A stretch of 64,000 nt of DNA from an uncultured archaeon (GTDB taxonomy: Archaea > Aenigmatarchaeota > Aenigmatarchaeia > CG10238-14 > SCSR01): the NCBI GenBank assembly GCA_964512235.1, contig CAZEGD010000001.1:106874-170873 (forward strand), given 5' to 3'. Positions 23,241 to 60,325 of the stretch are shown in pieces; the stretch's first letter is position 1; every line of letters begins with the position of its first letter. The notes below the pieces were generated by a model that was not told the origin of the DNA, did not search any database, and saw nothing but the letters and a program-made list of their open reading frames with translations. A program made the position numbers and the translations under genes.

Positions 23241-23344
23241 GCCGAGGTGGCAGAATCTGGTTAATGCGCACGGCTGGAAACTATTTACTTAGACAAGAAC
23301 CGTGTGGGCTTCGGCCCGTCTGGGTTCAAATCCCAGCCTCGGCG
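23241..23344 (+). tRNA. tRNA-Ser(GGA) with a canonical 37/38 intron (about 19 nt, 23280-23298)
   Basis: Acceptor GCCGAGG/CCTCGGC, anticodon stem CACGG/CCGTG, loop CTGGAA..A, long variable arm TGGGCTTCGGCCCGT, T-arm CTGGG-TTCAAAT-CCCAG. Confidence 0.85.
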
Positions 23345-41744: not shown

Positions 41745-41869
41745 GCTGGTGTAGATCAGTCTGGTTAGATCGCCGTGCTCATAAACTTTTATGAGCGTTG
41801 ATAGCGAGTGCTAAATGAGATACGAAAGGTGATACGCGGAAGTCGCGAGTTCAAATCTCGCCACCAGCA
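41745..41869 (+). tRNA. tRNA-Met(CAT), elongator-like (or Ile2), with a canonical-position intron of about 50 nt
   Basis: Acceptor GCTGGTG/CACCAGC, stem CCGTG/CGCGG, loop CTCATA. The intron begins near 41784 and contains TATGAG, complementary to the anticodon loop. T-arm GCGAG-TTCAAAT-CTCGC. Confidence 0.85.
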
Positions 41870-43328: not shown

Positions 43329-43337
43329 TTTTAAATA
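43329..43337 (+). promoter_or_regulatory. candidate TATA box of the 16S transcription unit
   Basis: TTTTAAATA, followed by a roughly 200-nt structured leader and the processing helix. Confidence 0.3.
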
Positions 43338-43534
43338 CTAGCATACCGAATATTAGTTTTGCGTAAACGGCGTTGAAGTTGGATTGTGCCTTCAGGCACG
43401 GGCTGTGACTTGGCGGTCGCGGCTGCAGTAGGTGGTGATGACATCTATTGTAAAAATGACAAACTTCTTTCAGTTTACGGTATATAGCTTTAGCCCAGAG
43501 TAGCGTTCTGGGTAGGTTTCAATTGCTACTTTTA

Positions 43535-43567
43535 TGCAGCAGTCGATGAAACCTAGAGGCAGAACCG
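43535..43567 (+). other. 16S processing helix, 5' strand (bulge-helix-bulge)
   Basis: TGCAGCAGT-C-GATG-AAA-CCTAGAGGCAGAACC pairs with 45345-45377. This gives 9 bp, a 3-nt bulge, 4 bp, a 3-nt bulge and 15 bp. Confidence 0.85.
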
Positions 43568-44232
43568 CCAATTCTGGTTGATCCTGCCAGAGGCCATTGC
43601 TATCCGAGTTCGACTAAGCCATGCGAGCCGTGAGGGGTTAAGCCCTCGGCGGACTGCTCCGTAATGCACAGATAACCTACCCTAAGGTGGGAGATAATCT
43701 CGAGAAATTGAGGCTAATATCCCATAGGTATCCGAGGCTGGAATGCACGGATACTCAAAGCTCCGGCGCCTTAGGATGGGACTGTGTCCTATCAGGCTGT
43801 TGCCGGTGTAAAGAACCAGCAAACCTATAACGGGTACGGGCTATGGAAGTAGGAGCCCGGAGATGGATTCTGAGACATGAATCCAGGTACTACGGTACGC
43901 AGCAGGCGCGAAACCTTTACAATGCATTAACGTGCGATAAGGGGACTCGGAGTGCTCCAGCACTGCTGGAGCTTTTGCCTACTGAAAACGGGTAAGCGAA
44001 TAAGGGCTGGGTAATACAGGTGCCAGCCGCCGCGGTAATACCTGAGGCCCGAGTGATGGCCAGCTTTATTGGGTCTAAAGCGTCCGTAGCCGGTTTGGTA
44101 AGTTCTTGCTGAAATCCTCCGGTAAACTGGAGGGCGTGGTGAGAATACTACCAGACTTGAGACCGGGAGAGGGTGGGGGTACTCGTAGGGGAGGGGTTAA
44201 ATCCTGTAATCCTGCGGGGACCACCTGTGGCG

Positions 44233-44262
44233 TTGGTTGCTCGTCGCGAGCGACTGCTACAA
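44233..44262 (+). other. 30-nt hairpin insertion inside the conserved GTGGCG|AAGGCG motif of the 16S
   Basis: TTGGTTGCTCGTCGCGAGCGACTGCTACAA. Contains an 8-bp stem GTTGCTCG/CGAGCGAC. Confidence 0.6.
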
Positions 44263-44273
44263 AAGGCGCCCAC

Positions 44274-44305
<32 letters not shown>

Positions 44306-44896
44306 GTGGGTAGCGATTGGGATTAGATACCCCAGTAGTCCACGCCGTAAACGATGCCCGCTTGGTGTAGCATGCTTCTTGGGAGTATGCTGTGCCGGAG
44401 CGTAGGTGTTAAGCGGGCCACCTGGGAACTACGACCGCAAGGTTGAAACTTAAGGGAATTGGCGGGGGAGCACACAAGGGGTGTGCACTGCGGTTCAATT
44501 GGATTCAACGCCGGAAATCTCACCAGGGCCGACGGCAGGATGATGGTCAGTCTGAAGGGCTTACCTGACAAGCCGAGAGGTGGTGCATGGCCATCGCCAG
44601 CTCGTACCGTGAGGCGTGCGCTTAAGTGCGTTAACGAGCGAGACCCACATCTTATGTTGCAATCTTGATTTCCGAATCAGGAGCACTCATAAGAGACCGC
44701 TGGTGATAAATCAGAGGAAGGAGTGGGCGACGGTAGGTCTGTATGCCCTGAATGTCCTGGGCTACACGCGGTGCACAATGTATGCCACAGTGGGATGCTA
44801 CCGCGAAAGCGGACGCGAACCCCTTAAAAGCATACTCAGTTCAGATCGAAGGCTGTAACTCGCCTTCGTGAAGCCGGAATCCCTAGTAAGCGAACG

Positions 44897-45017
44897 TCAT
44901 CAAGCCAAAGCTTTGTTGATGACGATAATGCACCACTCTGATGTATTGACGAAGCTTGTCTTCGTCTTTGCAATAATGATGAGTAAAAAATAAAGAATCA
45001 GAGCTTTAGCGTGAAAT
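44897..45017 (+). other. AT-rich insertion of roughly 113 nt in the apical loop of the GCGAACG/CGTTCGC hairpin of the 16S (E. coli position about 1360)
   Basis: The canonical loop is 7-9 nt; here it is 121 nt. Contains the C/D-box-like strings TTGATGA, CTGA, ATGATGA and CAGA. Confidence 0.6.
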
Positions 45018-45024
45018 CGTTCGC

Positions 45025-45062
<38 letters not shown>

Positions 45063-45152
45063 GCCAATCGAGTGGAGTTTAAACGAGACTTGCTTTGCTG
45101 CTTCGGCAGTAAAAGTGGGCCGAGTTTCGGTTCCGCGAGAAGGGCTAAGTCG

Positions 45153-45285
45153 CCACTTCAAGAGTTGTGCGAGTTTTAAGATGAAAAAATGGCTTGACTC
45201 TGACATTGCTTTGACGCACTTCGTGCGTCGGTGCAATGATTGATGAGTCGGAGGTGAATTGATTAAACATCATCTCTTGGAGCGA
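45153..45285 (+). other. insertion of roughly 133 nt between AAGTCG and TAA(A)CAAGGTAGCCGTA near the 16S 3' end
   Basis: It interrupts the conserved AAGTCGTAACAAGG string. The ends can pair (CAAGAG/CTCTTG). Confidence 0.6.
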
Positions 45286-45344
45286 TAAACAAGGTAGCCG
45301 TACGGGAACGTGCGGCTGGATCACCTCCTTAAGATCCAAGTGTG

Positions 45345-45377
45345 CTGGTTCTGCCTCTAGGCATCAAAACTGCTGCA
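45345..45377 (+). other. 16S processing helix, 3' strand
   Basis: CTGGTTCTGCCTCTAGG-CATC-AAA-ACTGCTGCA, complementary to 43535-43567. Confidence 0.85.
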
Positions 45378-45465
45378 AAAATATTTTATTTTGACATGAA
45401 CCAGCGTGAGCTGTATACCACAGAACCGCAATATTTATATAGTGTCACTAGTCAATAGTAACGTT

Positions 45466-46092
45466 ATGTCTAAACTAATTGTACTGCCTGAAAACCATCC
45501 AGAAAGAATATTGAAGGAAATAGAGATTATTGAAAATATTCGTCAAAATGCAGATACTAGAGATCCAACAAATGTGAAAGATATTAAAAATTATCGTTTG
45601 ATAGAGGAAAAATTGTTTGGTTATGCAACTGATATAGTGGCACTGGAAGCCGAAACACTTGGACGGAAAGATGTCAGTACAATCTATTCAGAGATGGAAA
45701 ATGATACTATACTTCAATTGTATGGAGAATTGGTGCAGGGGAAGAAGTTAATCTATTTGAGCGAAGGGTTTTACGGAAATAATGCTTTAAAGTCAAAAGC
45801 TGAGAGTGGACGTCTTGACCCTACATACGACTGGCTCCAAGGAGAGATGGAAAAATACTGGGTAGATAGAATAATCGAAAAACCTCCGGTGGAAGGAACT
45901 CTAGGAGTTCTAAAAATTGGGGGACACCATATAGAAAAGAGTGAATATATGGGGGATGTCCCAAAAATGTTGAGGGAAAAAGGTTTTGAAGTTGAGATTG
46001 TAAAAAGTCCGAATTATCAATCCCTGATAGATGATTGTTTCAAAGAGGCAGGATTAGACGTAGACCGGATAAGAGCATCTGCATTGATTTGA
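45466..46092 (+). CDS. hypothetical 208-aa protein encoded inside the 16S-23S spacer
   Basis: ATG about 25 nt downstream of ATATTTATATAG (leaderless geometry). No family recognised. Confidence 0.55.
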   Translation: MSKLIVLPENHPERILKEIEIIENIRQNADTRDPTNVKDIKNYRLIEEKLFGYATDIVALEAETLGRKDVSTIYSEMENDTILQLYGELVQGKKLIYLSEGFYGNNALKSKAESGRLDPTYDWLQGEMEKYWVDRIIEKPPVEGTLGVLKIGGHHIEKSEYMGDVPKMLREKGFEVEIVKSPNYQSLIDDCFKEAGLDVDRIRASALI

Positions 46093-46148
46093 TTTGCGTA
46101 AAATTAGTAATCTTTAAATTTAACTTCTCATAACAAATATTAGTTCAC

Positions 46149-46221
46149 GGGCCGATAGTTCAATGGCTAGAATGCCGTCCCTGCAAGGCGGAGGTTCCGG
46201 GTTCGAGTCCCGGTCGGTCCA
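46149..46221 (+). tRNA. tRNA-Ala(TGC), the classical archaeal rRNA-spacer tRNA
   Basis: Acceptor GGGCCGA/TCGGTCC with the G3:U70 Ala identity pair. Anticodon arm CCGTC-CCTGCAA-GGCGG (C at position 33). T-arm CCGGG-TTCGAGT-CCCGG. Confidence 0.8.
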
Positions 46222-46232
46222 CTCACAATGTT

Positions 46233-46268
46233 TTGACTTTATGTGCAAGATTGACTTTAAGTGCAAAG
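46233..46268. repeat. two tandem copies of the 18-nt motif TTGACTTTAAGTGCAAGA (dyad core ACTT-T-AAGT)
   Basis: TTGACTTTATGTGCAAGA followed by TTGACTTTAAGTGCAAAG. Confidence 0.85.
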
Positions 46269-46308
46269 CTACACTACATATTAAAAATTTCTGAACGCCA
46301 AGGCTGAG

Positions 46309-46920
46309 CTATTTAGTTTGAATCTTAGGTTCTTTAATAGGATAGCACAGTTCCCTTACTATTCTTACAGAAAAGTCTTCCAACTCATTTTTGGTATGTA
46401 CAACACAACCATTGCGGACTTCGTCTTCAGAATAAAACAAAGAATAAAGCAACCTTTGAAAAGGAGGTGTGTCAAATACACCTCGCTTTTTTAATTCATA
46501 AAAATCTAAATCTCCATTTTTATCCAACAACTCATTTATTATCGCTCTCTTCTCCTTAGGCAAGACTCTGGTCACTTCCCTTATTTCTTCAAGTTGAACA
46601 CTTCTACCATACCACCATAGAAACTCACCACAGATATCAACTGTGGTTACTCCCTTAGTTTTTAACTTCTCAATAAGTTCTTCACTTTCTCTGATTTTGT
46701 ATCTCATAATTTCTGCTTCTTCCGGAACATCGAAGGGCAGTTCATCATCTCTATTTAGTAACATTATGCAATTTTTTCTTCTCCAGACTGCTTCGTACAG
46801 TCTTTTAAGATAGACATCATACTCTCCATATTTTTCTTCCATTGCACCATCTATCCAGCGTGCACTATTAACGCGGGATCCTGGATGCACTACTACAAGC
46901 AACGGCTCTTGATTTTTCAT
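46309..46920 (-). CDS. hypothetical 203-aa protein (spacer cassette 1)
   Basis: ORF only. No family recognised. Confidence 0.55.
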   Translation of the reverse strand: MKNQEPLLVVVHPGSRVNSARWIDGAMEEKYGEYDVYLKRLYEAVWRRKNCIMLLNRDDELPFDVPEEAEIMRYKIRESEELIEKLKTKGVTTVDICGEFLWWYGRSVQLEEIREVTRVLPKEKRAIINELLDKNGDLDFYELKKRGVFDTPPFQRLLYSLFYSEDEVRNGCVVHTKNELEDFSVRIVRELCYPIKEPKIQTK

Positions 46921-46993
46921 AAAAGGATAATCAAAAAATTAAAGATTTAAGTCCTTTGACAATGTTGGGATTTGAAACCACTGAAAAAAGATT

Positions 46994-47377
46994 TCACTCC
47001 CTTCGTTTCCTTTCGTCTTTAAGTTTTGTGATAAGAGAGGTCATTATTCCCAAATCAATTTCAGAAATTTTAAATTCATCTCTATGCGGGCAATCTTCAT
47101 CTAATGTAGTACAATTTTTATCTTCATCATAGATTATGGGATATAGCTTACATCCTTTTGGTCTATTTTCGTAAATCAAGCATTGTTTGCCATCATTAAA
47201 AACACATCTTCCATCGCAATTCTTTAATTGTAACCAACCATCTCTATTGACAACAAAATAATCATAGTCGAAACCCAATCCTTTTATCCGTTCAATATCT
47301 TCCTTCAATAAAGGCATTTCAGTTTCTAAGCAACACTTGATGCATTTGTGACGTATACAACATTTTTTCATATCCAT
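46994..47377 (-). CDS. YkgJ-family cysteine-cluster (CxxCxxCC-type) protein
   Basis: 127 aa. KCCIRHKCIKCC and CVFNDGKQCLIYENRPKGCKLYP match the UPF0153/YkgJ pattern. Confidence 0.7.
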   Translation of the reverse strand: MDMKKCCIRHKCIKCCLETEMPLLKEDIERIKGLGFDYDYFVVNRDGWLQLKNCDGRCVFNDGKQCLIYENRPKGCKLYPIIYDEDKNCTTLDEDCPHRDEFKISEIDLGIMTSLITKLKDERKRRE

Positions 47378-47390
47378 TCACCTGAAGGAA

Positions 47391-47408
47391 CTATGTTTAA
47401 GTGCAGAA
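47391..47408. repeat. single degenerate copy of the 18-nt motif
   Basis: CTATGTTTAAGTGCAGAA. Lies between the YkgJ start codon and its putative TATA box (TTTTTAAATT on the minus strand). Confidence 0.7.
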
Positions 47409-47482
47409 TTTAAAAAGTCAGCCAAAAATAACTTTATCTTTCAGGGTATTTATTCCTCAAAACAATGCTTACTATCAATCCT
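47396..47482. repeat. 87-nt direct repeat, copy A
   Basis: 85 of 87 nt identical to 48104-48190 by manual alignment. Covers the 3' end of the 47450-47764 ORF. Confidence 0.9.
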
Positions 47483-47764
47483 TTCCTTTACAAGCACATC
47501 AAGCAACTTTACAATCCATCTAGCCTTGCCTTTCTTCGTCAAGGCGTACAAATGCTCCTTCCTCTCTATCAACCCACAGGATTCCAGCCTCTGTAGCGTC
47601 TCTGTTAGTGTGGATGTGGACTTGAACCTTATGCCAGTCAACGCCTGCAACTGATTCCCTATGTCTACCGCCCGCAAAGGCTCTGACTTGGACAGTATCC
47701 TGAGTATGTTCCTGTTCGTCCGCTCCGCCACTACCGCCACTATATCCTTCTTGTACCTAGCCAT
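47450..47764 (-). CDS. small winged-helix DNA-binding protein (spacer cassette 2)
   Basis: 104 aa from MARYKKD. NILRILSKSEPLRAVDIGNQL...LQRLESCGLIERK is wHTH-like. Confidence 0.55.
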   Translation of the reverse strand: MARYKKDIVAVVAERTNRNILRILSKSEPLRAVDIGNQLQALTGIRFKSTSTLTETLQRLESCGLIERKEHLYALTKKGKARWIVKLLDVLVKERIDSKHCFEE

Positions 47765-47852
47765 TAACAATAATTCGGTCTCGCAAATAACGAGTTTTAT
47801 CTCGTTTAAACCGATAATAATATAACCAATCAAGAGAAAACTATAATGACAG

Positions 47853-48065
47853 GTGCATCTGGATATGGTAGACGGAGTTACCAAAGACTTCAAGAAAAGA
47901 CTTCTCAAGGATATAAGTACAAATCCTGTGTCAATTAGCGAACTTTCCAGAAAGCTGAAGGTTCGCAGAGATTTTGTGACTGGTTATTTGCAGGCACTAG
48001 AAGATATGGGAGATATTAGGCTAGTCGTGGTTGGCAGGTCTAAAGTATATCTATCGAGGAAGTGA
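47853..48065 (+). CDS. small winged-helix DNA-binding protein, divergent partner
   Basis: 70 aa. ISTNPVSISELSRKLKVRRDFVTGYLQALEDMGDI. Confidence 0.5.
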   Translation: MHLDMVDGVTKDFKKRLLKDISTNPVSISELSRKLKVRRDFVTGYLQALEDMGDIRLVVVGRSKVYLSRK

Positions 48066-48080
48066 AAAAGGCATTATTTT

Positions 48081-48116
48081 CAGATTAAAAGTGCAAGACG
48101 GACTTTAAGTGTAGAA
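48081..48116. repeat. two degenerate tandem copies of the 18-nt motif
   Basis: CAGATTAAAAGTGCAAGA followed by CGGACTTTAAGTGTAGAA. Confidence 0.65.
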
Positions 48117-48190
48117 TTTAAAAAGTCAGCCAAAAATGACTTTATCTTTCAGGGTATTTATTCCTCAAAACAATGCTTACTATCAATCCT
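48104..48190. repeat. 87-nt direct repeat, copy B
   Basis: See copy A. Covers the 3' end of the 48142-48327 ORF in a different reading frame. Confidence 0.9.
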
Positions 48191-48327
48191 GCAATAACAC
48201 CAATAGCACATGCTACTAATACCCTTTCTGGTAAAGAAAGACCCAAATTTGATAACATCCCTATCGATCCCCCAGTAACACCACCGACAACTCCTCCAAT
48301 AATACCTCCTTTTTTATTTATTTTCAT
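48142..48327 (-). CDS. glycine-zipper membrane peptide, 61 aa (spacer cassette 3)
   Basis: MKINKKGGIIGGVVGGVTGGSIGM... Trimmed to the internal ATG. Confidence 0.4.
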   Translation of the reverse strand: MKINKKGGIIGGVVGGVTGGSIGMLSNLGLSLPERVLVACAIGVIAGLIVSIVLRNKYPER

Positions 48328-48383
48328 ATTCAAACCTCTCCAAATAATAATTAAAAACCAGTGTTTAAAACTGATTGTAATTT

Positions 48384-48419
48384 TTGACTTTAAGTGCAAG
48401 ATGGAGTTTAAGTGCAAAG
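48384..48419. repeat. two tandem copies of the 18-nt motif
   Basis: TTGACTTTAAGTGCAAGA followed by TGGAGTTTAAGTGCAAAG. Confidence 0.85.
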
Positions 48420-48436
48420 CCACATTATACGAAATC

Positions 48437-48446
48437 TTTATAAATA
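48437..48446 (+). promoter_or_regulatory. candidate TATA box of an independent 23S transcription unit
   Basis: TTTATAAATA, about 390 nt upstream of the 23S processing helix. Minus-strand genes lie immediately upstream. Confidence 0.3.
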
Positions 48447-48827
48447 AGTAGGACCATTATATTTTTTACTTCGGTGTCGCTATGCAAGAGTAGAAACGCT
48501 CATTTACCCTCTGTTTAGCGATGAGCATGTGCCTTTTTCTGATGCCTTCTGTTGCATTTCGTATGCGACATGGCTGTGATGAGAGTGGACACCTTGCTAT
48601 GCTTGTAGAGGTGTGCGGTCAAACGCACGAGCGTGCTAATACTACATTCAATAGCGTATAGTTACGTTGAAGTGTAGATGCAAATCCCGATTGAACATCG
48701 TGGGTTGAAGAGTGGAAGTTGATGATTGTAGAGAAGTATCCGAGCAACCATCCCGTGGGCAATAGGATGGATTGCAGATGAGGTGCGAGCTGTCTCATAT
48801 GAAACTGTAAATAATGATACTACCATA

Positions 48828-48853
48828 GGATCAAACTGGCAATAGAGGTCTGC
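48828..48853 (+). other. 23S processing helix, 5' strand (bulge-helix-bulge)
   Basis: GGATCAAAC-TGGC-AAT-AGAGGTCTGC pairs with 51993-52018. This gives 9 bp, an AAA bulge, 4 bp, an AAT bulge and 10 bp. Confidence 0.8.
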
Positions 48854-51245
48854 TGCGCCAGCCACTTGGTGGATGGCTTGGTTCCAGACGCCGAAGAAGG
48901 TCGTAGCAAGCTGCGATAAGCCTGGGTTAGCCGCATGCGGGCTTAGACCCCAGGATCGCCGAATGCAACTAGTAGCTTTGGCTGATGCGAGAGCATTGGG
49001 AACGCGGCGAATTGAAGCATCTTAGTAGCCGCAGGAAAAGAAAACAATTGTGATACCGTGAGTAACGGCGAGTAAAAGCGGTATAGGGCAAACCGAATCT
49101 ATGCCGAAAGGCAATAGAGTTGTGGTGTTTGGACTTGTGTCTTTCCCAACCAGTTGACCGGAAATCCGCTGGGACGCGGTGCGGTAAAGGGTGATAGCCC
49201 CGTACGGGAAGACTGGGAGGAAAATGGCAAGTATCCAGAGTACTGCTCCTCGATTATGGAGTAGGAATATGCCGGGCATTAACCGGCAACCCTAAACACG
49301 TCTGGAGACCGATAGTGAAGTAGTATGATGACAGAAGGCTGAAAAGTACCGCGAAAGCGGGGTGAAAAGAATCTGAAACCAAGTTGGCAATAGTCTGGTA
49401 CGGCGCGGAAGGTGCTGCCTGGAAGGAAATGTGCGCAAGCACGAAGTACGACGGGTAGCTTACAGTGTCGTGCCATCCGTTTTGAAGAACGGGACAGGGA
49501 GTTTATTTCAGTAGTGAGGTTAAGCTGTTAAGCAGTGTAGCCGTAGCGAAAGCGACAGGTCCGTATGCGCAAGCAGTGGGACGTGGTGTGAAAGCGCCAG
49601 AAATTACTGGGATAGGACCCGAAACCAGTCGATCTAACCCTGGGTAGGATGAAGTTGCGCGAAAGCGCAATGGAGGTCCGTTACCGTTGCTGAGTCACAT
49701 ATCGCTCGGGTGACCTGGGGATAGGGGTGAAAAGCCTAACGAGACTGGTGATAGCTGGTTCCTCTCGAAATGCATCTAAGTGCAGCCTGGTCCGAGGTGT
49801 GACATGGGGTAGAGCTACTGATTGGATTGTCAAGGCCCGAAAGGGTCAGCTTTCCTGTCAAACTCCGAATCCATGCCTACCGTAGACGACCGGAGTGAGG
49901 GCTCTTGGGTTAAGCCCGAGACCCAAAAGGGAAACAACCCCAACTGAGGTTAAGGTCTCTAAATGCCGGCTAAACGAGAAAGGGAGTCTAAACTCTCAGA
50001 CAGTAGGACTGTAGGCTCAGAAGCAGCCACCAGTCAAAAAGTGCGTAACAGCTTACCTACCGAGGGTTTGGGCCCTGAAAATGGAAGAGACTAAGCCGGC
50101 TACCGATACCCCAGACTATTCTGTTGAGCAGAATAGTGGTAGAGAGGCGTCCTGCGCGGACAGAAGCTTGGGCGTAAGCTCTAGTAGACCGCGTAGGATT
50201 GAAAATCCTGCCGAAAGTAGCAGCATAGCTGGGCGAGAATCCCAGTCGCCTAAAGGATGCGGGTTTGCCAGCAATGGTTATCAACTGGCAGTTAGTCGGT
50301 CCTAACCTAAATCTTAACCGAACTTAGGGAATGGCAAAGACGTTAATATTCGTCTACCATGAAGGTACACGCGGCAACGCAAGTTAAGCGTCTGACGCTT
50401 CGGGATAAGTCAACGTAAGTCAACTATTGAAATCTGTGGAGTCTTATAACGAGGAGAAACAGATGAATGTGGAAGTAGCTCCGTGTATGCGGAGTTTGGC
50501 TGGTTCCTGGAGCCCATGAAAAGGATGCTTATCGGATCCTTCATGACCGTACCAAGAACCGACACAGGTATCCATGCTGAGAAGGCAATGGTGTGTTGGG
50601 AGAACCCAGTCTAGGGAACTCGGCAAATTAGTGGTGTACGTTCGCAAGAAACCATGCCTGTAATCTTGAACCGGGCGTCCGCATAAGCGAGGCAATCGGG
50701 AAGGGATTGCAGGTTGCAATAACTAGGGGAAAGCGTCTGTTTAACAAAAACGTAGGAGAGCGCTAATGCGAAAGCACTTGTACGCTCTCTGATGCCTGCC
50801 CAGTATCGGTGTGTTAAAACCTGTTTCAACAGGTCGAAGCCCCGGTAAACGGCGGCGGTAACTCTGACCGTCATAAAGTAGCGTAATCCCTTGTCGTTTA
50901 ATTGACGACCCGTCTGAATGGCTTAACGACTTTTCCACTGTCCCAGGCTGGGACCCAGCGAACTTGCTATTCTGGTGAATAGGCCAGAGACCTCCAGTGG
51001 GAAACGTAGACCCCGTGGAACTTTACTGCAGTTTGATGTTGTGATCCGGCTGCGATCGTATAGAGTAGATAGGACTCGTTATCAGGCTGATCCGTCAGGT
51101 GAAAGCTGAGAGGAAAGTGTAACACTATCCCTTTGTTGCTGTATCACTTACTCCTCGGAGGACAGCATTTAATGGGCAGTTCGGCTGGGGTGGTACTCCC
51201 TTGAGAATGCATCAAGGGAGCCCAAAGATCAGCTCATCGAGGTCA

Positions 51246-51337
51246 CAATAAGAGTCATAAATGATTAAACCACTCCAGATTGAGCGCTTAGGCGCTATGA
51301 TAATTGGGTGTAGCTAATGATGGGCTCTTATTGCCCC
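51246..51337 (+). other. candidate insertion of roughly 90 nt in a 23S hairpin loop about 150 nt upstream of the GGGGATAA motif
   Basis: The stem TCGAG/CTCGA normally closes a short GTCGGAAAT-type loop. Here the loop holds an AT-rich element closed by AATAAGAG/CTCTTATT. Confidence 0.45.
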
Positions 51338-51588
51338 AAAGAAATCTCGAGTAGAATGCAAGCGTAAAAGCTGGTCTGACCGTATTTCGCAAAGCGAGAA
51401 ATTCGGCTGCGAAAGCATGGGCTAGCGAGACGTCGATTGGCTTTAATGGCCGCCGATGGTATCAGAAAAGCTACCCCGGGGATAATGGAGTCGTGGCCCC
51501 CGAAAGCCCACATTGACGGGGCGCGTTGCTTCATCGTTGTCGCCTCCCCCCTTCCTGGCCGTGCACAAGCGGCCAAGGGTACAGGTGT

Positions 51589-51630
51589 CCAACATTTGCT
51601 TTGGTGCTTTGCACTGATGCATTGTACACA
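51589..51630 (+). other. candidate 42-nt insertion within the 23S A-loop (helix 92) hairpin
   Basis: CAAGGGTACAGGTGT[42 nt]TACTGGTTAAAG. Removing the 42 nt gives GGGTA-CAGG-TGTTA-CTGG-TTAAAG. The consensus is GGGTA-TGGC-TGTTC-GCCA-TTTAAAG. Confidence 0.5.
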
Positions 51631-51992
51631 TACTGGTTAAAGGGGGACGCTAGGTGGGTTCAGAACGTTGTGAGACAGTTCGGTCGCTATCTACTGGAGG
51701 TGTCGGTTGTCTGACCGGAAGGAAGGGAAAGTACGAAAGGAACACCCTCCCGTGGCCTCTAGTCTATCGGTTGTTCGAAGCATGGCCGAGCAGCCACGCC
51801 ATAGCGGATAAGAGCTGAAAGCATCTAAGCTCGAAACCGCCCGGAAAAATAGACAACCATTCACAAAGCTGACTGGCAACAGCCGGCGGAGTGACGAAGG
51901 CACTCGTAGACTACGAGTTTGATAGAACAGGGGTGTAAGCATCAAGCGTTCGCGCGAGGTGTTCAGCCCGCTGTTACTAATCGCCTGAGGTG

Positions 51993-52018
51993 GCAGACCT
52001 CTGCTAAAAGTTTGATCC
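51993..52018 (+). other. 23S processing helix, 3' strand
   Basis: GCAGACCTCT-GCTA-AAA-GTTTGATCC. Confidence 0.8.
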
Positions 52019-52111
52019 AAAAATCGGTAGTAACAAATCTCATATTTAAGGGAGGAGTTCCATTATAGTAGGATGTGAATTCTCCTTGAATTCGAAACCG
52101 CGATAGAGATA

Positions 52112-53303: not shown

Positions 53304-56300
53304 ATGAAAGTTGAAGAGGCATTAAAAGAAACCATAGCAGAAAGGAAAGAAAGGGAGAAGCGAAAGCAGAGAATTAAAGCCGTTGCATTATCCATTCTAT
53401 TGATAACTTTAACTCTGATTGTTTTCAGGTATACCACAATAACAGGGATGATTACAAGATTAATAACAAAGCCTGAGCATGTGCAAGATTTGTCTATTTT
53501 GATTAATGAAAATCAAACCTATGATTGGATCTTAAGTGAAGTGTGCACAGATGCAAATTGCTATATCAACTCTGTCAGAATATCTGGAAAGATTATTGGA
53601 AATGATGGTTATGCAAAAGTGTATTTGGAAGATATTGGGGGAAACCGCTATCTCATTTTTGACAAAAGCATTGAAGAAAGTGGAAAATCTCCACTTACAG
53701 GAATGGGTGGGTTGCTGGAAATTCCAGAGCATATCAATCAAACCGTAAATGAAACTACAACTACTACTATCCCGAATCAAACAACTACGACTATAGTGCC
53801 TAATCAAACAACCACGACAACCACACCAAACGAGACCACAATGACAACGATTGAAACTACAACTACGACAACAACTTCTACAACTACTATTCCGAATCAA
53901 ACAACTACTACTTCAACCACATCTACTACCACTTCCACAACTACAACTTCTATGACAACTACTACGACACTACCAATAGAAATTGATTTTAATAATGAAT
54001 GTATAGAAACTTGCGATTTATCTGGAAAGAGTTTGAATGAAAGTTCCTTTATTTTAATTTTTGAACTGAGTGAAGGAGTTACTATTAACATCGATACCAT
54101 CAGTTACAGTTGGCAGTTGGAAAAAGAGATAGCTCTTCCTAAGAAAGCCAAAATAGAAAAGTCTGTAGTGAAAGATTCCAAGGGAAGAACGATTAATTCC
54201 ATACTTATATTGAAGGATTCGCGAACTAAGGATTTGATAGAAAGTATCTCCACAGATTCTGAGGCAACAATTGATATGGGTGAATATGACATTGAAATGT
54301 TACCTGAGCAGCATCCTGTCAAAAAACTAAGTTTAAAAAATGTCAGGGTGAACAAGAAACTCGAAAAGTTAGTTGATTTGGATGATGTGCCCGAGAGCAT
54401 CCCGACACCTGAAGATGTCAATGAATGGACGGAAGTCTATGCTATCGATCCCACAGAGCTCGATTTTGCAGAAGCGGAAGTGACTGTGACAGCCAAAGGT
54501 AATGCTTTGTATAAGTGTAAAGACTGGGATTTTGCTGCGCAAAGCTGCTACGGAGAATGGGTTAAAATAATGGAAATGACTCCAGGAGAAAATTATACAT
54601 TTACTTTAACACAGGAAGACCCTGGGTTTGGTGAAGCTAACATCACAATAATCAATGTCCGGAGCTATCCTACACTTTATGGGAATTGGACTGTCAGGTT
54701 TAACACTATTGGTACTGCTGATTTAACTGTTACAGCTGTCAATGGCACTGGATTTGGAAGAGATATAGAATTTTTGGAGCTGAGATGCGGAGATAATGTT
54801 TTAACGACTGAACTTACTGATGGTGTGGCTTTTGTTGAAAATTACAGCTGCAACGAAACTGGTCATGAAATCAGTAAAGTTCTGATAGCTGGCAAACATA
54901 CGCTAGAGTTTAGATTTGGAGATGATGTTGAATATGCTTACAATGATGTTGTAGTATACGAGACTGGTATAGTCCAAAATGTCAACGGCTGGACTCTAGT
55001 AGCTCTAGACACAAGTTACACAAATCCTGTTGTTATAGTTACAGGTCAAGAAGGTGCAGATATAAGTATGGATGTTGAGGCGTCTAGGCCAATGATAAGG
55101 AATGTCAGCTCCAATAGTTTTGAGGTGCAGGTTGTAAATGACGGTACTAATGTTGTGGAAGAAGATGTTGGCTATATAGTAATGGAAGAAGGTCATTGGA
55201 CAGTAGATGGAGTTGAAGTTGAGGCAGGAACTTATAGTGTAAGCTCAGCTGCTAGTACTCAAACAGTTACTTATGCTGAAACTTTCCCTGGGAACACTGT
55301 TGTGATTGATACTCTTCAAACAGAATGTTCAGAGACAGTTTCTTCAAGATATATAGAGAATAGTATGGGTTCAAGCTCTTTTCAAGTTTGGTGGGAAGAC
55401 TTCTCTGGTCTTACTAGCGAAACCAATTCTTGGAGTTGTGGAGCTGCAACAGCAGGATACATAGCAGTAGAATTAGGAAACTCAAGCAGTATATTCGAAA
55501 GTGGAATATATGATGAGTGTACTGCTGATCCTGGAAGTAGCGATTGGTGCAGTATCACCTTTAGCAATTCATATGCTTCAACACCCATCTTATTTGTTAA
55601 TCCTCATGATGTAGCAGGAAGTGATTCAGCAATTGTGGGAAGAAGAAGTTTAAGCACTACTGGGGTTGACTTAAGATCGACTGAATCAAGAACAGCAGAT
55701 GCTGAGCAAGATCACGCAACAGACGACATGCCTTGGATAGTTTGGACAGATGTGGATGTAGGCGCTCCGCCGACCTATTTTAATAATTCCACAAATACGA
55801 CAGTCGCAGGTCAGCCGACTTTATTCAGCTTGAATTGGACGAGCGAGAAGGGATTGAGTGGATATATTTTCAGCTTATATAATGGAAGTGATTACCAACA
55901 AGAAAGTTGTTCTGGAACGGCAAAAGACTGTAGTGAACACGACAATGAAGACGATTGTGAGTTATGTGGTTGTACTTGGTCAGGCTCAGATTATAACCAA
56001 ACAGTTATGGATTTGAACCCAGAAGCAAGATGGCTATTGAATGGAGATGGGACTGACTCTTCTGGTAATGGACATAATAGTGATGCTGAAACAACTCCAG
56101 TTTTTGTAGATAATATAATTCCAAACAACGATACAGCACAGTGTGGAGATTTTGTTCCAAATGATGAATACCAAATCCCAGACAGTCCTAGAATTAACAC
56201 TGGAACTGGCTACGCAGGAACAGAAAGGGCATTATCTGTGTGGATTATAGCTGACACGATAGATACGACAGGAAATGGGAGAGCAATCTGGACAGAAGGT

Positions 56301-58643
56301 GGTGGAAGTAACTCATTGAATATGTATACTTTTAATAATGGAACTCATGATAACATATACTGCAACGCAGTAGAAAGTGCTAATTATGATTATGTGTATA
56401 CACAAATAAATGAGGGAGAGTTATTACATGTCGGATGTATGTTTAATTTTGCTGGTGGAAGAATAGACATGTATATCAATGGAACATTAGTAAGTTCTGA
56501 TACATCATTGGTAGTTGGAACATCTTTAGCTTCTCACAGTGGAGATTGTGCAATAGGTGGTCAAGACTCCAATACAGACAATCATTTAGGAGCTTCAATG
56601 AGTGCTAATTTTGATGGTAGGATAGCAGATTTAGTATATTGGAGTGATGGTTCTGTCATAACACAACAAAACTTCTCAGGCATCTATCAAGCAGGTATAG
56701 ATACAGCTGGAGGCTGCTCGGGGACTCAAGATTCATGCGCTATAGGAACTTGTAATGCAACTTGTAGCTGTACGCATACTCCATATCTAGAATTTCACAA
56801 TGATACTTGGACAGCTTTTTCTGGAACAACTTGGTCTAACGTAACAAAGATAGTCAATTCAACAACAGGAGCAACTATAAAGTGGTGTGTTTATGCGAAT
56901 GACACGAATGATAGATGGAATGGAACTTCTTGCCAAAATCCATTCAGCTATATTACAACAGCTGGTGTTTCAAACAATGCACCTGTCCTTACTTCTGTAG
57001 ACGTAACAACGTCTTCACCAAACACTACAGAAACTTTGGATTGTGGAGCAAAAGGGTATGATGTTGACGCAGGTGAAGTGCTGAAAACGAATTTCACATG
57101 GTATCGTGATACTGGAACAGACTATGTTGCATGGACATCGGACGATGAGACAGAAGTAGCGACGACTAATGACACATATGTGAATACATCTGCAACTGGT
57201 GACATTGAATCAGCAGATACTGCTAAAACTTACAAATTCATCTGTCAGGCCACGCTTTACGACGATGGAGGAGCTTCAGATATTATGAACTCCAGTGCAG
57301 TAACCGTTGTCAACTCTCCTCCAAATCCAGACTCGAGTTGGAGCCCAGGGACTACACATGATCCCAATCAGGACTTTACGTGGTCGGAAGGGAGTGATGA
57401 TGACGGTGATGGAGTGACTTCTTATCTATGCATAGATGATGATTCGAGTGGAAGGGATAATGAAGTCTGTGATGCCTACTCCAACAGTGGTTTAGATTCT
57501 CCTGTCGAAGATGTTACTTTAACCTACGATGGAGCGAGTAAAACATATTATGGAAGATTGACAGCAACTGATGGTCAGGCCAACTCCACAGATTATGATT
57601 TCACATTCACTTTGACAAACGCTCAGCCATCCGCACCTTCTGCTGCTTACCTCGACGGGCAGACTACAAACGATACAACGCCTACTATAACTTTCACTAA
57701 AGGTACAGATAGTGATACAAGCCCGGTAGACACAGTAACACAGTATATTTCAGTAGACAGTTCAGGCTATACCGATTCAGGCGACACTTATACAACATCG
57801 GGCGACATAAATCAATTCACAATTGACCCTGATTTGAGCGATGGTACTTATTATGTCAGAGAATGGACAGACGATGGGACAGGCTCATCTAACACACGCT
57901 CGGACAATTACGAATATACTTTCACAGTTACATCGGTGATAAGAATATATTCCATAACAATCGAGCCAGATGAAGGCGATCCAGGCATAGTAGTTGACCC
58001 GCTAGCAGATTTGAACAAGACTGTCAACGTAACTGTAGTTGTTGCGAACTCGACCACTATTGATACATGTGAAATAAGAATTTTCAATGCAACATCAAGC
58101 TATGCTAATCCCGTATTTCAGTATATTGATGGGACTGTGCAAAACTGTGGTACAATGTGTGAATGTTTTAAAGAATGGGGTATGGAATATTGGAGGAATG
58201 ATGGATCTTGGAATGTGTCTGTTGATATCAATGTAACCAATGGACCTAGCAACTTCACCTCTCAGAATTTCACATACAATGCATTAACGTCGTTTGATAT
58301 AAACACTTCTACTATTACATTCGGCGGCATCCCGGGACAGACTGTGAACTCGAGCGACGCATATCCGTTACAAATCAAAAATACTGGGAACCAGATACTT
58401 GACTTTAGCTTGAATGGCTCTGACTTCATTGGGTTGGGCGATGCCAGCTATGTGGTGAGGGTAAATAATGCAACTTATAACGAAAGTGTTACCGGGGAAT
58501 TTAGGCAACTTACAGACGACTACTATCTGGCATATTCCAATACTGTTGGTAGTGGTTTTGTAAATGTGTGGTTCCGTGCATATTTGCCAGTGGGTTTCAT
58601 AGAGCAAGGTTACCAAGACGTTATAGAAGTTAAAGGTGAATAG
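53304..58643 (+). CDS. giant (1779-aa) membrane-anchored surface protein: Thr-rich stalk, Ig/PKD-like beta-sandwich repeats, LamG/ConA-like lectin domain
   Basis: N-terminal signal-anchor helix (IKAVALSILLITLTLIVF) and IPNQTTTT repeats. LNGDGTDSSGNGHN...DGRIADLVYWS is LamG_3-like. FTWSEGSDDDGDGVTSY is PKD-like. Very many N-x-S/T sequons. Confidence 0.85.
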   Translation: MKVEEALKETIAERKEREKRKQRIKAVALSILLITLTLIVFRYTTITGMITRLITKPEHVQDLSILINENQTYDWILSEVCTDANCYINSVRISGKIIGNDGYAKVYLEDIGGNRYLIFDKSIEESGKSPLTGMGGLLEIPEHINQTVNETTTTTIPNQTTTTIVPNQTTTTTTPNETTMTTIETTTTTTTSTTTIPNQTTTTSTTSTTTSTTTTSMTTTTTLPIEIDFNNECIETCDLSGKSLNESSFILIFELSEGVTINIDTISYSWQLEKEIALPKKAKIEKSVVKDSKGRTINSILILKDSRTKDLIESISTDSEATIDMGEYDIEMLPEQHPVKKLSLKNVRVNKKLEKLVDLDDVPESIPTPEDVNEWTEVYAIDPTELDFAEAEVTVTAKGNALYKCKDWDFAAQSCYGEWVKIMEMTPGENYTFTLTQEDPGFGEANITIINVRSYPTLYGNWTVRFNTIGTADLTVTAVNGTGFGRDIEFLELRCGDNVLTTELTDGVAFVENYSCNETGHEISKVLIAGKHTLEFRFGDDVEYAYNDVVVYETGIVQNVNGWTLVALDTSYTNPVVIVTGQEGADISMDVEASRPMIRNVSSNSFEVQVVNDGTNVVEEDVGYIVMEEGHWTVDGVEVEAGTYSVSSAASTQTVTYAETFPGNTVVIDTLQTECSETVSSRYIENSMGSSSFQVWWEDFSGLTSETNSWSCGAATAGYIAVELGNSSSIFESGIYDECTADPGSSDWCSITFSNSYASTPILFVNPHDVAGSDSAIVGRRSLSTTGVDLRSTESRTADAEQDHATDDMPWIVWTDVDVGAPPTYFNNSTNTTVAGQPTLFSLNWTSEKGLSGYIFSLYNGSDYQQESCSGTAKDCSEHDNEDDCELCGCTWSGSDYNQTVMDLNPEARWLLNGDGTDSSGNGHNSDAETTPVFVDNIIPNNDTAQCGDFVPNDEYQIPDSPRINTGTGYAGTERALSVWIIADTIDTTGNGRAIWTEGGGSNSLNMYTFNNGTHDNIYCNAVESANYDYVYTQINEGELLHVGCMFNFAGGRIDMYINGTLVSSDTSLVVGTSLASHSGDCAIGGQDSNTDNHLGASMSANFDGRIADLVYWSDGSVITQQNFSGIYQAGIDTAGGCSGTQDSCAIGTCNATCSCTHTPYLEFHNDTWTAFSGTTWSNVTKIVNSTTGATIKWCVYANDTNDRWNGTSCQNPFSYITTAGVSNNAPVLTSVDVTTSSPNTTETLDCGAKGYDVDAGEVLKTNFTWYRDTGTDYVAWTSDDETEVATTNDTYVNTSATGDIESADTAKTYKFICQATLYDDGGASDIMNSSAVTVVNSPPNPDSSWSPGTTHDPNQDFTWSEGSDDDGDGVTSYLCIDDDSSGRDNEVCDAYSNSGLDSPVEDVTLTYDGASKTYYGRLTATDGQANSTDYDFTFTLTNAQPSAPSAAYLDGQTTNDTTPTITFTKGTDSDTSPVDTVTQYISVDSSGYTDSGDTYTTSGDINQFTIDPDLSDGTYYVREWTDDGTGSSNTRSDNYEYTFTVTSVIRIYSITIEPDEGDPGIVVDPLADLNKTVNVTVVVANSTTIDTCEIRIFNATSSYANPVFQYIDGTVQNCGTMCECFKEWGMEYWRNDGSWNVSVDINVTNGPSNFTSQNFTYNALTSFDINTSTITFGGIPGQTVNSSDAYPLQIKNTGNQILDFSLNGSDFIGLGDASYVVRVNNATYNESVTGEFRQLTDDYYLAYSNTVGSGFVNVWFRAYLPVGFIEQGYQDVIEVKGE
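53748..53969 (+). repeat. in-frame Thr-rich low-complexity repeat (IPNQTTTT units) encoding the stalk
   Basis: Repeated ATCCCGAATCAAACAACTAC-like units, roughly aa 149-222 of the giant protein. Confidence 0.85.
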
Positions 58644-58700: not shown

Positions 58701-59708
58701 ATGAAACCGCTCTTATTGTTGGGGATGATTGCCCTTTGCGTACTTGCAGTCTATGGAGTTACAACTTATTTTGGACCGATGTCAGAATTTTTAAGCGGTC
58801 TGGCAATCGCATCAAAGACTGGTACATTGGCCATCGGGAATGCAGCACCGGTTATAAACAACATATACATTAATGGAAGCATAACTACTGCTACGCCTAC
58901 AGATGTTGTAATAGACCCAACGTCAAATACGTCAATTACATTGGATGTAACCGCTCAGGTAACTGATAACAACGGTGATTGTGATACATTTAAAATAAAT
59001 AATGGTACTGCATATCTATGCGAAGGTGTAAGTGTGAGGTGTGACGCTAACACTGCCAACCACACTATTTATATGAATTACAGCTCAGATGCAGGGTTGT
59101 GGGGCACAGGTAACAAAGAGTGCAATATTACAAGCAATATAACATCAACTACAATTGCCGAAAAGGTGTGGTTCTTTGAAAGGAATGGTTCTTGGACAAT
59201 AAATATCAGTGTGACAGATGGTACGGACACTGTCGTGCTTACTAAGAATTTTACCGTCAATGAATTAAGATCTATTACTTATCCGAGTTCGGGGAGTACG
59301 GTAGATTTCGGTAATCCAACAGTTAATCAATGGAATGAGGGACTTGGTTCAAGTATATTGCAGAATTCTGGGAACATAATATCTGACGTCAGATGGAATG
59401 CATCAAACTTCACATCGGGTTCAAATGTGATCCATGTGAATGGCACAACTCTTGTAATCGACGATGACGGGACACGTGCAAGTGATGTTGGTAGTGAGAC
59501 CGAGGTAGAGCTAAGTGGTGGTGACCATTCGTCTCAAGTCTACTTTAATTACACCACTGGGGTGGTAAGATGTCCTAATTCACATTGTGGAGGCACTACT
59601 AATGCCACCATAGACATATATTGGCATCTTTACATTCCGGCTGGAACACCAGTAGGTACTTATACAAATGTGATCCAAATGGAAAATATAGATCACTATC
59701 CGGGTTGA
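58701..59708 (+). CDS. secreted two-beta-sandwich protein, paralogue of the giant protein's C-terminal module
   Basis: Signal peptide MKPLLLLGMIALCVLAVYG. Shares the patterns ..NGSW.(I/V).(I/V)S(V).. and ..N(S/T)GN.I.D.. with 57934-58640, and both end in YLP(A/V)G..(V/Q)G(T/Y). Confidence 0.75.
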   Translation: MKPLLLLGMIALCVLAVYGVTTYFGPMSEFLSGLAIASKTGTLAIGNAAPVINNIYINGSITTATPTDVVIDPTSNTSITLDVTAQVTDNNGDCDTFKINNGTAYLCEGVSVRCDANTANHTIYMNYSSDAGLWGTGNKECNITSNITSTTIAEKVWFFERNGSWTINISVTDGTDTVVLTKNFTVNELRSITYPSSGSTVDFGNPTVNQWNEGLGSSILQNSGNIISDVRWNASNFTSGSNVIHVNGTTLVIDDDGTRASDVGSETEVELSGGDHSSQVYFNYTTGVVRCPNSHCGGTTNATIDIYWHLYIPAGTPVGTYTNVIQMENIDHYPG

Positions 59709-59728
59709 TTTGAAAGGAGTAAGATAAA

Positions 59729-60325
59729 ATGAAAATGAAGTATGCGGGAACAACAATTCTGATATTTTTAATTGCAAATATGATGCTTGTGTCCTTAGTA
59801 CAAGCTATAGGGGTGACAAGGCCGGTACCGTTGGCTGTAGAACTGCTCCGTGGCGAGTCACAGGTCTTCAGATTCCAGGTACAGGCCACGACTTCAACAC
59901 TAGACCAGTTATGTAGTTACTCCATTAGCGGAGTCAGTCCACTTGTAGTAGACTTTGAAGAAGAAAGTGGCGTAACTGTAAAAGCCGGTGGAAAGGAAAA
60001 TGTCTACTTTACGATTATTGTACCAGAAGACGCTCCAATAAGAGGGTATCTGGGTAAATTAGCTGTTAGATGTGGTGATAAAAGAGAAGCTAAGGGAATT
60101 ACCGGATCTGCGGTCTATTCGACAATCAATTCACCGTTTAGCGTAGATGTTGTCTCCTTTAGAGAAGGTGAGAAACCAGAAATGGAAATTCCAGAGGGAC
60201 CTGCCGGTATATCAACAGAAATAGTAATTGTTATCATAATAGCTGCTGTAATATTAATTGCTGGTGTCTATTATTGGAGCAAAAAAAGTAGAAAGAAAAG
60301 GGTTAAGAGAAGGCCTAAGAAATAG
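59729..60325 (+). CDS. surface protein with signal peptide, one beta-sandwich and a C-terminal TM anchor
   Basis: MKMKYAGTTILIFLIANMMLVSLVQA. C-terminal IVIVIIIAAVILIAGVYYW followed by KKSRKKRVKRRPKK. Confidence 0.7.
   Translation: MKMKYAGTTILIFLIANMMLVSLVQAIGVTRPVPLAVELLRGESQVFRFQVQATTSTLDQLCSYSISGVSPLVVDFEEESGVTVKAGGKENVYFTIIVPEDAPIRGYLGKLAVRCGDKREAKGITGSAVYSTINSPFSVDVVSFREGEKPEMEIPEGPAGISTEIVIVIIIAAVILIAGVYYWSKKSRKKRVKRRPKK

Follow-up and report, generated by a model that had tools for sequence, protein, structure and literature searches.

An aenigmatarchaeal rRNA cluster in ancestral order, with a gene-filled 16S-23S spacer and predicted promoters of its own for each RNA gene

Ribosomal RNA (rRNA) genes are called unlinked when the internal transcribed spacer (ITS) between 16S and 23S exceeds 1500 bp, a condition that is widespread in Bacteria and Archaea (Brewer et al. 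2019/2020, bioRxiv 10.1101/705046); most unlinked pairs lie >6 kb apart, at a mean distance of ~410 kb (Brewer et al., bioRxiv 10.1101/705046). Unlinking is prevalent in the DPANN archaea, among which the Aenigmarchaeota are marked as having both linked and unlinked genes (Juttner and Ferreira-Cerca 2022, PMC8997704), and it has been used in arguments on DPANN and Asgard phylogeny, its frequency and timing being called unknown by the authors (PMC8997704). In Borrelia burgdorferi, the region 16S-tRNA-Ala / tRNA-Ile / 23S-5S-23S-5S gives rise to three independent transcripts by reverse transcription PCR (PMC3037291). The locus described here is the 16S-23S region of an uncultured member of the Aenigmatarchaeota (DPANN), found in a 64-kb stretch of contig CAZEGD010000001.1 (positions 106,874 to 170,873, hereafter the window), whose host is a small-genome, probably symbiotic archaeon. 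It is best read from its sequence as a single rRNA cluster that has kept the ancestral order and is no longer one operon, a reading to which we assign a probability of roughly 0.7.

The 16S rRNA gene (43571-45329, 1759 nt; RF01959, 1329.7 bits, full model), tRNA-Ala(UGC) (46149-46222; ARAGORN and Rfam, 61.5 bits) and the 23S rRNA gene (48846-52000; RF02540, 2473.5 bits, full model) all lie on the plus strand, so that the canonical order asserted by an earlier, sequence-only reading of this DNA is borne out by Rfam and ARAGORN. That reading had also counted six protein genes in the spacer, had placed four of them in antisense orientation and had excluded the minus-strand genes from any 16S-23S co-transcript; the exclusion is upheld, and the map of open reading frames (ORFs) agrees with the gene count, placing six ORFs, four of the six on the minus strand, in a spacer of 3516 nt (45330-48845). 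At least three of the six are backed by a family or by homologues (the 208-residue ORF208, the 203-residue ORF203 and a PF03692 protein). If a canonical operon is taken to have a spacer of at most 1500 bp free of protein genes, the locus does not qualify as one, and its 16S-23S distance places it among the unlinked genes as defined by Brewer et al. (>1500 bp). The Rfam search returned no 5S rRNA gene anywhere in the window, including the 12 kb downstream of 23S, and thus the 5S gene is also unlinked from 23S. A scan of the spacer with Rfam at a relaxed E-value revealed no additional known RNA, and none of the six spacer proteins has a paralogue elsewhere in the window.

Compared with the canonical euryarchaeal-type operon, 16S-tRNA-Ala-23S(-5S), the window has the same gene order, a spacer tRNA-Ala(UGC) and, at both rRNAs, long helices of leader and trailer, but departs from it in the length and gene content of the spacer, in its predicted internal promoters and in lacking a 5S gene downstream. 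It resembles the unlinked rRNA genes of Brewer et al. and of Juttner and Ferreira-Cerca in passing the 1500-bp threshold, in being a single-copy locus and in belonging to a phylum with both arrangements; unlike most unlinked pairs, it keeps order, strand and the spacer tRNA-Ala across a gap of only 3.5 kb. In B. burgdorferi, which has the best-studied split cluster of this kind, as in the window, the cluster is split at the kilobase scale with the order kept and tRNA-Ala after 16S, and the separate 16S and 23S transcription units that were measured there are in the window predicted only. The spirochaete cluster is bacterial and its processing is of the RNase III type, in place of the stems and EndA used in archaea, its 23S-5S unit is tandemly duplicated, and its tRNA-Ala is co-transcribed with 16S, whereas the window tRNA-Ala has a predicted promoter of its own. 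By analogy, B. burgdorferi may serve as a precedent for independent transcripts in a split cluster of preserved order. The window locus is an intermediate form of the known unlinked-rRNA condition, and as such represents an incremental advance and no new mechanism.

The sequence upstream of each plus-strand unit suggests that transcription begins there. The plus strand of the window contains 41 matches to TTTAWAW, so that the chance of meeting one within a given 25 nt is 0.016, and such a match precedes the conserved 16S leader by 28 nt, the ORF208 start codon by 32 nt, tRNA-Ala by 36 nt and the conserved 23S leader by 35 nt. The relatives used for comparison are five GTDB-representative genomes (Candidatus Aenigmatarchaeota) retrieved by a 24-mer from an insertion near the 16S 3' end; because they share only 80-84% 16S identity with the window, the comparison is a deep one, and even so the boxes of 16S, tRNA-Ala and 23S align across these genomes. 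The predicted TATA box of the 16S promoter (TTTAAATAC, 43330-43338, plus strand) contains a TTAAATA that is invariant in the alignment of the window with L020, L021 and L022. That of ORF208 (TTTATATA, 45434-45441, plus) belongs to a block, TTATATAGTGTCAC..CAATAGTAAC..ATG, which is near-invariant in the window, L004, L005 and L006 and recognisable in L029 and L020; since the box lies 32 nt before the ATG, the ORF208 mRNA is predicted to be leaderless or nearly so. The tRNA-Ala promoter is predicted at TTTAAATT (46113-46120, plus), and all five aligned lineages have a TATA-like box 30-42 nt ahead of tRNA-Ala.

Ahead of 23S, the TATA-like box that had been pointed out at 48437 is present (TTTATAAAT); the predicted promoter element there (TTTATAAATA, 48437-48446, plus) aligns with CTTTATAAATA in L020 and CCTTAAATAT in L021, and ~30 nt beyond it, at CGGTGTCGCTATGCA, close to where transcription would be expected to start, the sequences again become conserved, just as they do in the 16S leader. 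A 23S-proximal promoter, as the sequence-only reading had proposed, is therefore very likely, given both the aligned box and the conservation that resumes behind it. The leader itself, put by that reading at ~390 nt, does exist and is somewhat shorter, ~375-380 nt, with a conserved start at ~48472 and conserved blocks in the alignment of a structured region (48472-48845, plus). The compact spacer of L021 has tRNA-Ala and 23S boxes as well. A scan for promoters and terminators of bacterial type gave counts no higher than in shuffled sequence, and such a scan is not relevant to archaea.

Each rRNA also appears to be equipped for its own excision. The 16S gene is flanked by an inverted repeat whose arms (43535-43566 and 45347-45377, plus) fold into a stem (leader plus trailer -61.7 kcal/mol, z-score -8.7), and the 5' arm carries a bulge-helix-bulge-like element in relaxed form, a 4-bp helix GAUG/CAUC with an AAA bulge on each strand. 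The 23S stem is formed in the fold by the last ~27 nt of the leader (48819-48845, plus) and a 3' arm at 51993-52031 (plus; -49 kcal/mol, z-score -6.7). The 3' arm of the 16S stem is followed by a T4-A-T4 tract (45384-45392), arm and tract being conserved in L004 and L006, and this tract is a possible weak terminator. Oligo-T serves as a termination signal in archaea, and between tRNA-Ala and the 23S promoter the plus strand contains 11 tracts of T5 or T6.

Where transcription starts and stops, and how and in what order the insertions discussed below arose, we infer. The 16S gene, ORF208, tRNA-Ala and 23S would each start from a TATA-box promoter of their own, giving four plus-strand units, with the minus-strand genes forming separate transcription units. 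Each rRNA would be excised via its own leader/trailer stem, so that maturation would have no need of a joint precursor. The 11 oligo-T tracts would stop read-through towards 23S, and some read-through from 16S to tRNA-Ala may occur. A 23S gene that is independent of upstream transcription would in turn allow the spacer to tolerate gains of DNA, and the spacer may in this way have turned into a place of gene turnover.

The spacers of the relatives differ widely in length and content. That of L021, which also resembles the window in having tRNA-His upstream, measures 1041 nt (173 nt from 16S to tRNA-Ala and 795 nt from tRNA-Ala to 23S) and contains no credible ORF. In L020 the corresponding distances are 1115 and 2631 nt, and the total of 3819 nt accommodates seven genes on both strands (DUF134, DUF5320, a Zn-ribbon peptide, a 97-residue ORF, a DSPc phosphatase, MazG and a 129-residue ORF). 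L022 has 2833 nt between 16S and tRNA-Ala and >2.2 kb between tRNA-Ala and 23S, and carries an antisense H+-pyrophosphatase gene (673 residues, E 4e-245). In L024 neither tRNA-Ala nor 23S is present within ~6.5 kb, a LAGLIDADG ORF and ordinary genes being found instead. The comparison of spacers in relatives that had been suggested thus shows expansion to vary, from 1.0 kb through 3.5-3.8 kb and >5 kb to full separation. None of the window's six spacer proteins was found in L020-L024, and gene-filled spacers of preserved order, with content specific to each lineage, are thus a condition of the whole clade. Because the compact L021 already has predicted promoters for tRNA-Ala and 23S, functional decoupling probably preceded, and permitted, the expansion of the spacer.

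L029 and L020 have flanks that are ~89-90% identical and contents that differ. The promoter block GAAATCTTTATATATTGTCACT precedes an ORF208 homologue in L029 (180-275) and an unrelated 97-residue ORF in L020 (reverse complement of 3955-4050), and the gene behind a fixed promoter has been replaced between the two. L020 moreover has a 1.5-kb DSPc/MazG block that enters exactly at the 5' edge of a short motif upstream of the 23S promoter, described below. Different genes behind one promoter, together with a block inserted at the motif, point to the spacer as a hot spot of gene turnover.

Two of the six spacer genes in the window appear to be long-term residents. ORF208 (45466-46092, plus strand) has homologues at 88, 60 and 60% identity situated directly after the 16S 3' end or before tRNA-Ala, and a more distant one (P0010, 44%) 830 nt upstream of a 23S gene; a further homologue with 33% identity (P0011) lies on a short contig of 948 nt without rRNA. 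The family is small, with four clusters at 60% identity or more among 5.8e9 protein clusters and 15 representatives among 1.84e9. Its alignment is gapless, with invariant residues H11, E76, P141, G152 and H155 and a ratio of nonsynonymous to synonymous substitution rates (dN/dS) of 0.11-0.37, which shows purifying selection; from the positions of its homologues, ORF208 is a long-term inhabitant of the rRNA spacer. An AlphaFold2 model built from 16 sequences is alpha/beta with a mean confidence score (pLDDT) of 86.6, while one built from four sequences was useless (pLDDT 45). Searches of Pfam, NCBIfam and PHROGs and a hidden Markov model search of the PDB returned nothing for ORF208, and Foldseek found no significant match to the model in the PDB or BFVD, its best PDB matches being tetrapyrrole-methylase-like at a TM-score of 0.38 or below and E of 8e-3 or worse. 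An assignment to the TraB/PrgY/GumN-Tiki-like metallohydrolases was considered on account of the PExH ... E ... GxxH pattern of ORF208 and rejected, since PF01963 matched only one of 16 members of the ORF208 family (E 0.076) and there was no significant fold match; ORF208 was accordingly placed in no family.

Two of the sequences with ORF208 show variation nearby. L004, the closest relative whose spacer differs, has an extra ORF of 98-101 residues (824-1129) between its ORF208, 88% identical to that of the window, and tRNA-Ala; this ORF is without a counterpart in the window and is further evidence of small-gene turnover in the spacer. L005, the 60% relative, lacks the 16S 3' terminus GGCTGGATCACCTCC together with the 3' processing arm (480-660), and its 16S is joined at ...GGGAACGTGC straight to the ORF208 TATA box, which represents either a deletion variant or a misassembly.

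The other resident is a membrane peptide of 61 residues with a weak glycine-zipper match (48142-48327, minus), divergent from the 23S promoter. A homologue with 58% identity in L028/L029 (tblastn 1.3e-10) is oriented alike and likewise placed, with the ORF208 homologue on one side and the 23S promoter on the other, and the gene therefore appears to be an old resident of the spacer shared with relatives.

The remaining genes look different in origin. ORF203 (46309-46920, minus; no Pfam match) has homologues at 91, 59 and 49% identity and a dN/dS of 0.18, which suggest a real gene under purifying selection; the 59 and 49% homologues occupy loci without rRNA or tRNA, adjoining NucS-like and ParE genes, and ORF203 is probably a lineage-specific arrival in the spacer. 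An isochorismatase-like identity was dropped, the pyrazinamidase match being non-significant (E 0.83). The next gene (46994-47377, minus) encodes a YkgJ-type CxxCxxCC protein of 127 residues (125 from the second ATG, as in the NCBI gene call), which matches PF03692 over profile positions 2-85 of 85 (E 5.2e-11, 43.5 bits against a 23-bit gathering cutoff) and displays CC..C..CC and C..C motifs. It is followed by a divergent pair of putative winged helix-turn-helix (wHTH) genes. The product of the first, wHTH104 (104 residues; 47450-47764, minus), is weakly MarR/PadR/ArsR-like, with Pfam and NCBIfam matches of 1e-3 to 5e-5 that all fall below gathering, and has no homologue outside its own cluster among the 5.8e9 protein clusters. 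The second (47853/47865-48065, plus; weak HTH matches) encodes a protein of 70 or 66 residues, the 66-residue form being called in NCBI and Joint Genome Institute (JGI) assemblies. No relatives of either gene were found in the searches made. Their intergenic region contains a perfect 6-bp palindrome, AACGAG-N6-CTCGTT (47790-47807), adjoining a palindromic TTTAAA, and the two are candidates for an operator and a promoter acting in both directions. Like ORF203, the wHTH pair is likely to be an addition in the window lineage; the YkgJ gene is grouped with them on account of its position.

Direct repeats delimit these apparent additions. The 87-nt repeat D1b (48104-48190, plus) contains the true 3' end and terminator-like hairpin of the glycine-zipper gene, and its 98% identical counterpart D1a (47396-47482, plus) holds one GTGCAG half-site, a minus-strand hairpin with T-run and, by tblastn, a copy of the last 15 glycine-zipper codons; in another frame, wHTH104 takes its last 10 codons and its stop from D1a. 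The two copies bracket the wHTH pair and read clearly as the scar of an insertion or duplication. A second repeat, of 46 nt, has as its core the tandem pair TTTAAGTGCAAG-N5-TTTAAGTGCAAAG. Its right copy, D2-R (GACTTTAAGTGCAAG-ATGGAG-TTTAAGTGCAAAG, 48382-48427, plus), stands 20 nt upstream of the 23S TATA box and is the orthologous, conserved one, as single copies occur in the same place in L020 and, in variant form, in L028/L029; compact L021 has none. The left copy, D2-L (46231-46276, plus; 89% identical to D2-R), lies directly after tRNA-Ala and is an extra copy of the tandem GTGCAA pair normally found upstream of the 23S promoter; it is present in contigs L001-L003 and L007-L009. A third, more diverged copy, D2-M (48079-48124, plus), has its second half-site at the first base of D1b. 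The window thus has three tandem pairs where 0.19 would be expected, and all of them lie in the spacer, on the plus strand. The 46-nt repeat (D2-L/D2-R) and the 87-nt repeat bracket the block ORF203-YkgJ-wHTH-wHTH, which would have come later than the residents, by recombination events in which 46 nt of the motif upstream of 23S were copied, as were 87 nt from the glycine-zipper 3' end.

These results bear on the central claim of the sequence-only reading, namely that an rRNA operon has been caught in the act of being uncoupled by cassette insertion. Part of the spacer does carry the signs of insertion, in its direct repeats of 46 and 87 nt and in an ORF203 whose homologues reside at non-rRNA loci. 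The cassette interpretation does not extend to ORF208 and the glycine-zipper gene, two of the six, which relatives also have in their rRNA spacers. Nor does the locus appear to be caught in mid-process, since L021, at ~80% 16S identity, already has the predicted promoters and the window is already unlinked by the >1500 bp definition.

The preferred reading of separate units has to be weighed against one in which the cluster is still a single operon, the 16S promoter giving rise to a long precursor that takes in ORF208, tRNA-Ala, 2.6 kb of antisense genes and 23S, with the internal TATA boxes minor or non-functional and the minus-strand genes expressed against the flow. The order and strand of 16S, ORF208, tRNA-Ala and 23S have been kept over deep divergence, and rRNA elongation complexes resist termination. 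Several observations count against separate units: AT-rich DNA readily yields TATA-like boxes, and read-through can occur despite internal promoters; all four RNA or sense-strand units share one orientation; a canonical bulge-helix-bulge, in relaxed form, was found for 16S only, the minimum free energy fold of 23S showing a stem and none that is canonical; and no tract of T5 or longer separates the 16S 3' end from tRNA-Ala, so that 16S, ORF208 and tRNA-Ala may still be partly co-transcribed. To these must be added that the relatives are so distant (80-84%) that the series of spacers is no lineage of descent, and that the glycine-zipper gene has a dN/dS of ~1 over 57 codons, for which reason constraint on it is weak or not discernible. 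A precursor reaching 23S would nevertheless have to traverse the 11 T5/T6 tracts and would bring the cell's most heavily transcribed unit into head-on collision with four convergent genes. It would also leave unaccounted for the TATA boxes and conserved leader starts that align at tRNA-Ala and 23S across relatives, the 2-kb antisense housekeeping gene in the L022 spacer and the complete loss of linkage in L024, and we regard a surviving single operon as improbable. Far less probable still is that the assembly is at fault and the length of the spacer stems from a chimeric join, either at the repeats or in the flanks of the rRNA genes. The repeats themselves could invite such a join, the exact YkgJ product is recorded from one NCBI contig only, and the independent short-read contigs L001, L002 and L003, from different samples, all end within 47077-47115, inside the intact YkgJ ORF and with no repeat there to account for it; a scan of metagenome DNA returned the left motif copy alone, and it also speaks against our reading that no one independent contig spans 47115-48845, or the whole spacer, in one piece. 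Against an artefact, at least eight contigs assembled from other samples (JGI and Logan) match the window at 99.8-100% identity over a region that begins upstream of 16S and reaches the 3' part of YkgJ, and they reproduce the order 16S-ORF208-tRNA-Ala-ORF203, and the PF03692 domain runs uninterrupted across 47077-47115. The repeat copies differ at 2 of 87 and 5 of 46 positions and are therefore not collapsed duplicates. The wHTH104, wHTH66 and glycine-zipper products are likewise called in JGI assemblies, wHTH104 on a contig of up to 1315 nt, which exceeds the 795 nt spanned by the two 87-nt repeats from outer edge to outer edge, so that at least one repeat junction has been crossed independently. 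Finally, the order glycine-zipper, motif, TATA box, 23S leader recurs in the independent L028 and L029, and motif, TATA box and leader in L020. The check on chimerism that the sequence-only reading had called for thus speaks for a genuine spacer.

A further rival reading concerns the origin of the inserted DNA: 46277-48381 (2.1 kb), or parts of it, could represent a mobile element that has integrated or several captured cassettes, with the tandem GTGCAA motif as attachment or recombination site and the 46-nt and 87-nt repeats as attL/attR-like scars. As in tRNA-adjacent integration and integron-like arrays, the inserts are bracketed by direct repeats beside a tRNA gene, a short motif recurs at the cassette borders, and neighbouring lineages (L020 and L029) have different cargo behind a conserved promoter. 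The confinement of the three pairs to the spacer in one orientation, the start of the 87-nt repeat exactly at a half-site, the precise entry of the L020 block at the motif, and the ParE toxin and NucS-like genes beside ORF203 relatives elsewhere all fit this picture. However, no integrase, transposase or other recombinase was detected in the spacer or its flanking ORFs with Pfam, PHROGs and NCBIfam. Unlike the sites of site-specific integration and integrons, the repeat lies off the tRNA and the motif is not an attC-like imperfect palindrome; its half-sites are direct rather than the inverted repeats typical of tyrosine-recombinase core sites, and its fixed distance from the 23S TATA box would suit a transcription-factor site. 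Repeats of such lengths also arise from ordinary illegitimate or homologous recombination. No link to viruses or plasmids was found: IMG/VR protein scans (ORF203, wHTH104) and plasmid blastn were empty, PHROGs gave a generic HTH only, the IMG/VR matches to the motif are unrelated chance matches, and a viral or plasmid origin of the insert was accordingly rejected. Among the contigs found, all short and from the same population, none shows an empty site. We consider a mobile element or captured cassettes unlikely, though not greatly so, and prefer recombination within a spacer that was probably already decoupled; the tandem GTGCAA motif may be a transcription-factor site, a recombination site or both. 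More speculative, and quite improbable, are the ideas that the motif is a capture site which makes the spacer a cassette platform without a local integrase, or that the ORF208 family, whose genes are tied to rRNA genes in several lineages, is an unrecognised ribosome-biogenesis or rRNA-modifying enzyme. If the capture-site idea were true, small genes would be swapped in and out beside, and even behind, conserved strong promoters.

With regard to the published accounts, spacer gene content, resident genes, internal promoters and repeat-bounded insertions are not described in the main text of Brewer et al., in the main text of PMC8997704 or, by a search for terms, in the supplement. Relative to these papers, what is apparently new is the presence of predicted internal promoters even in a compact relative, a protein family resident in the spacer, and repeat-bounded additions beside the 23S-upstream motif. 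How and why rRNA operons break up is an open question, and within one phylum the locus and its relatives represent several intermediate states, with spacers from 1.0 kb up to complete separation. These states suggest a testable succession in which internal promoters and self-contained stems came before a spacer that tolerates foreign genes, and physical separation followed. In practical terms, methods based on long 16S-ITS-23S amplicons and binning by linkage will fail or mislead for this aenigmatarchaeal clade, and gene callers will encounter real protein genes within an ITS.

Several further features of the rRNA genes and their surroundings were observed. The 16S gene, at 1759 nt against a 1478-nt Rfam model, contains ~280 nt of lineage-specific insertions in the small-subunit alignment. 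Two of these, near the 3' end (44900-45010 and 45150-45290), are related to one another, each carrying CUGA, a hairpin and UGAUGAG in a layout like that of boxes D'/C', which may fold into a k-turn; both are common to the relatives, and one yields the 24-mer, specific to Aenigmatarchaeota in GTDB, by which the relatives were retrieved. A similar CTGA...TGATGAG pair is present in the conserved 23S leader at 48535-48580. In L022 the 16S gene (551-2904) reaches 2354 nt owing to a 610-nt insertion at about position 995, either intron-like or an expansion element, and in L024 a 280-residue LAGLIDADG ORF (709-1551; PF14528, E 3.6e-10) with a C-terminal HTH begins 125 nt downstream of the unlinked 16S 3' end. 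Downstream of 23S in the window, at a distance of 1.3 kb, lies a 1779-residue ORF (53304-58643) without a Pfam match, followed by ORFs at 58701-61736 that have no annotation besides a weak CARDB match. Elsewhere in the window, Rfam reports tRNA genes at 23241-23344 (104 nt) and 41745-41869 (125 nt), both missed by ARAGORN and presumably intron-containing, and ARAGORN reports an odd 'tRNA-???' at 17837-17931 on the minus strand.

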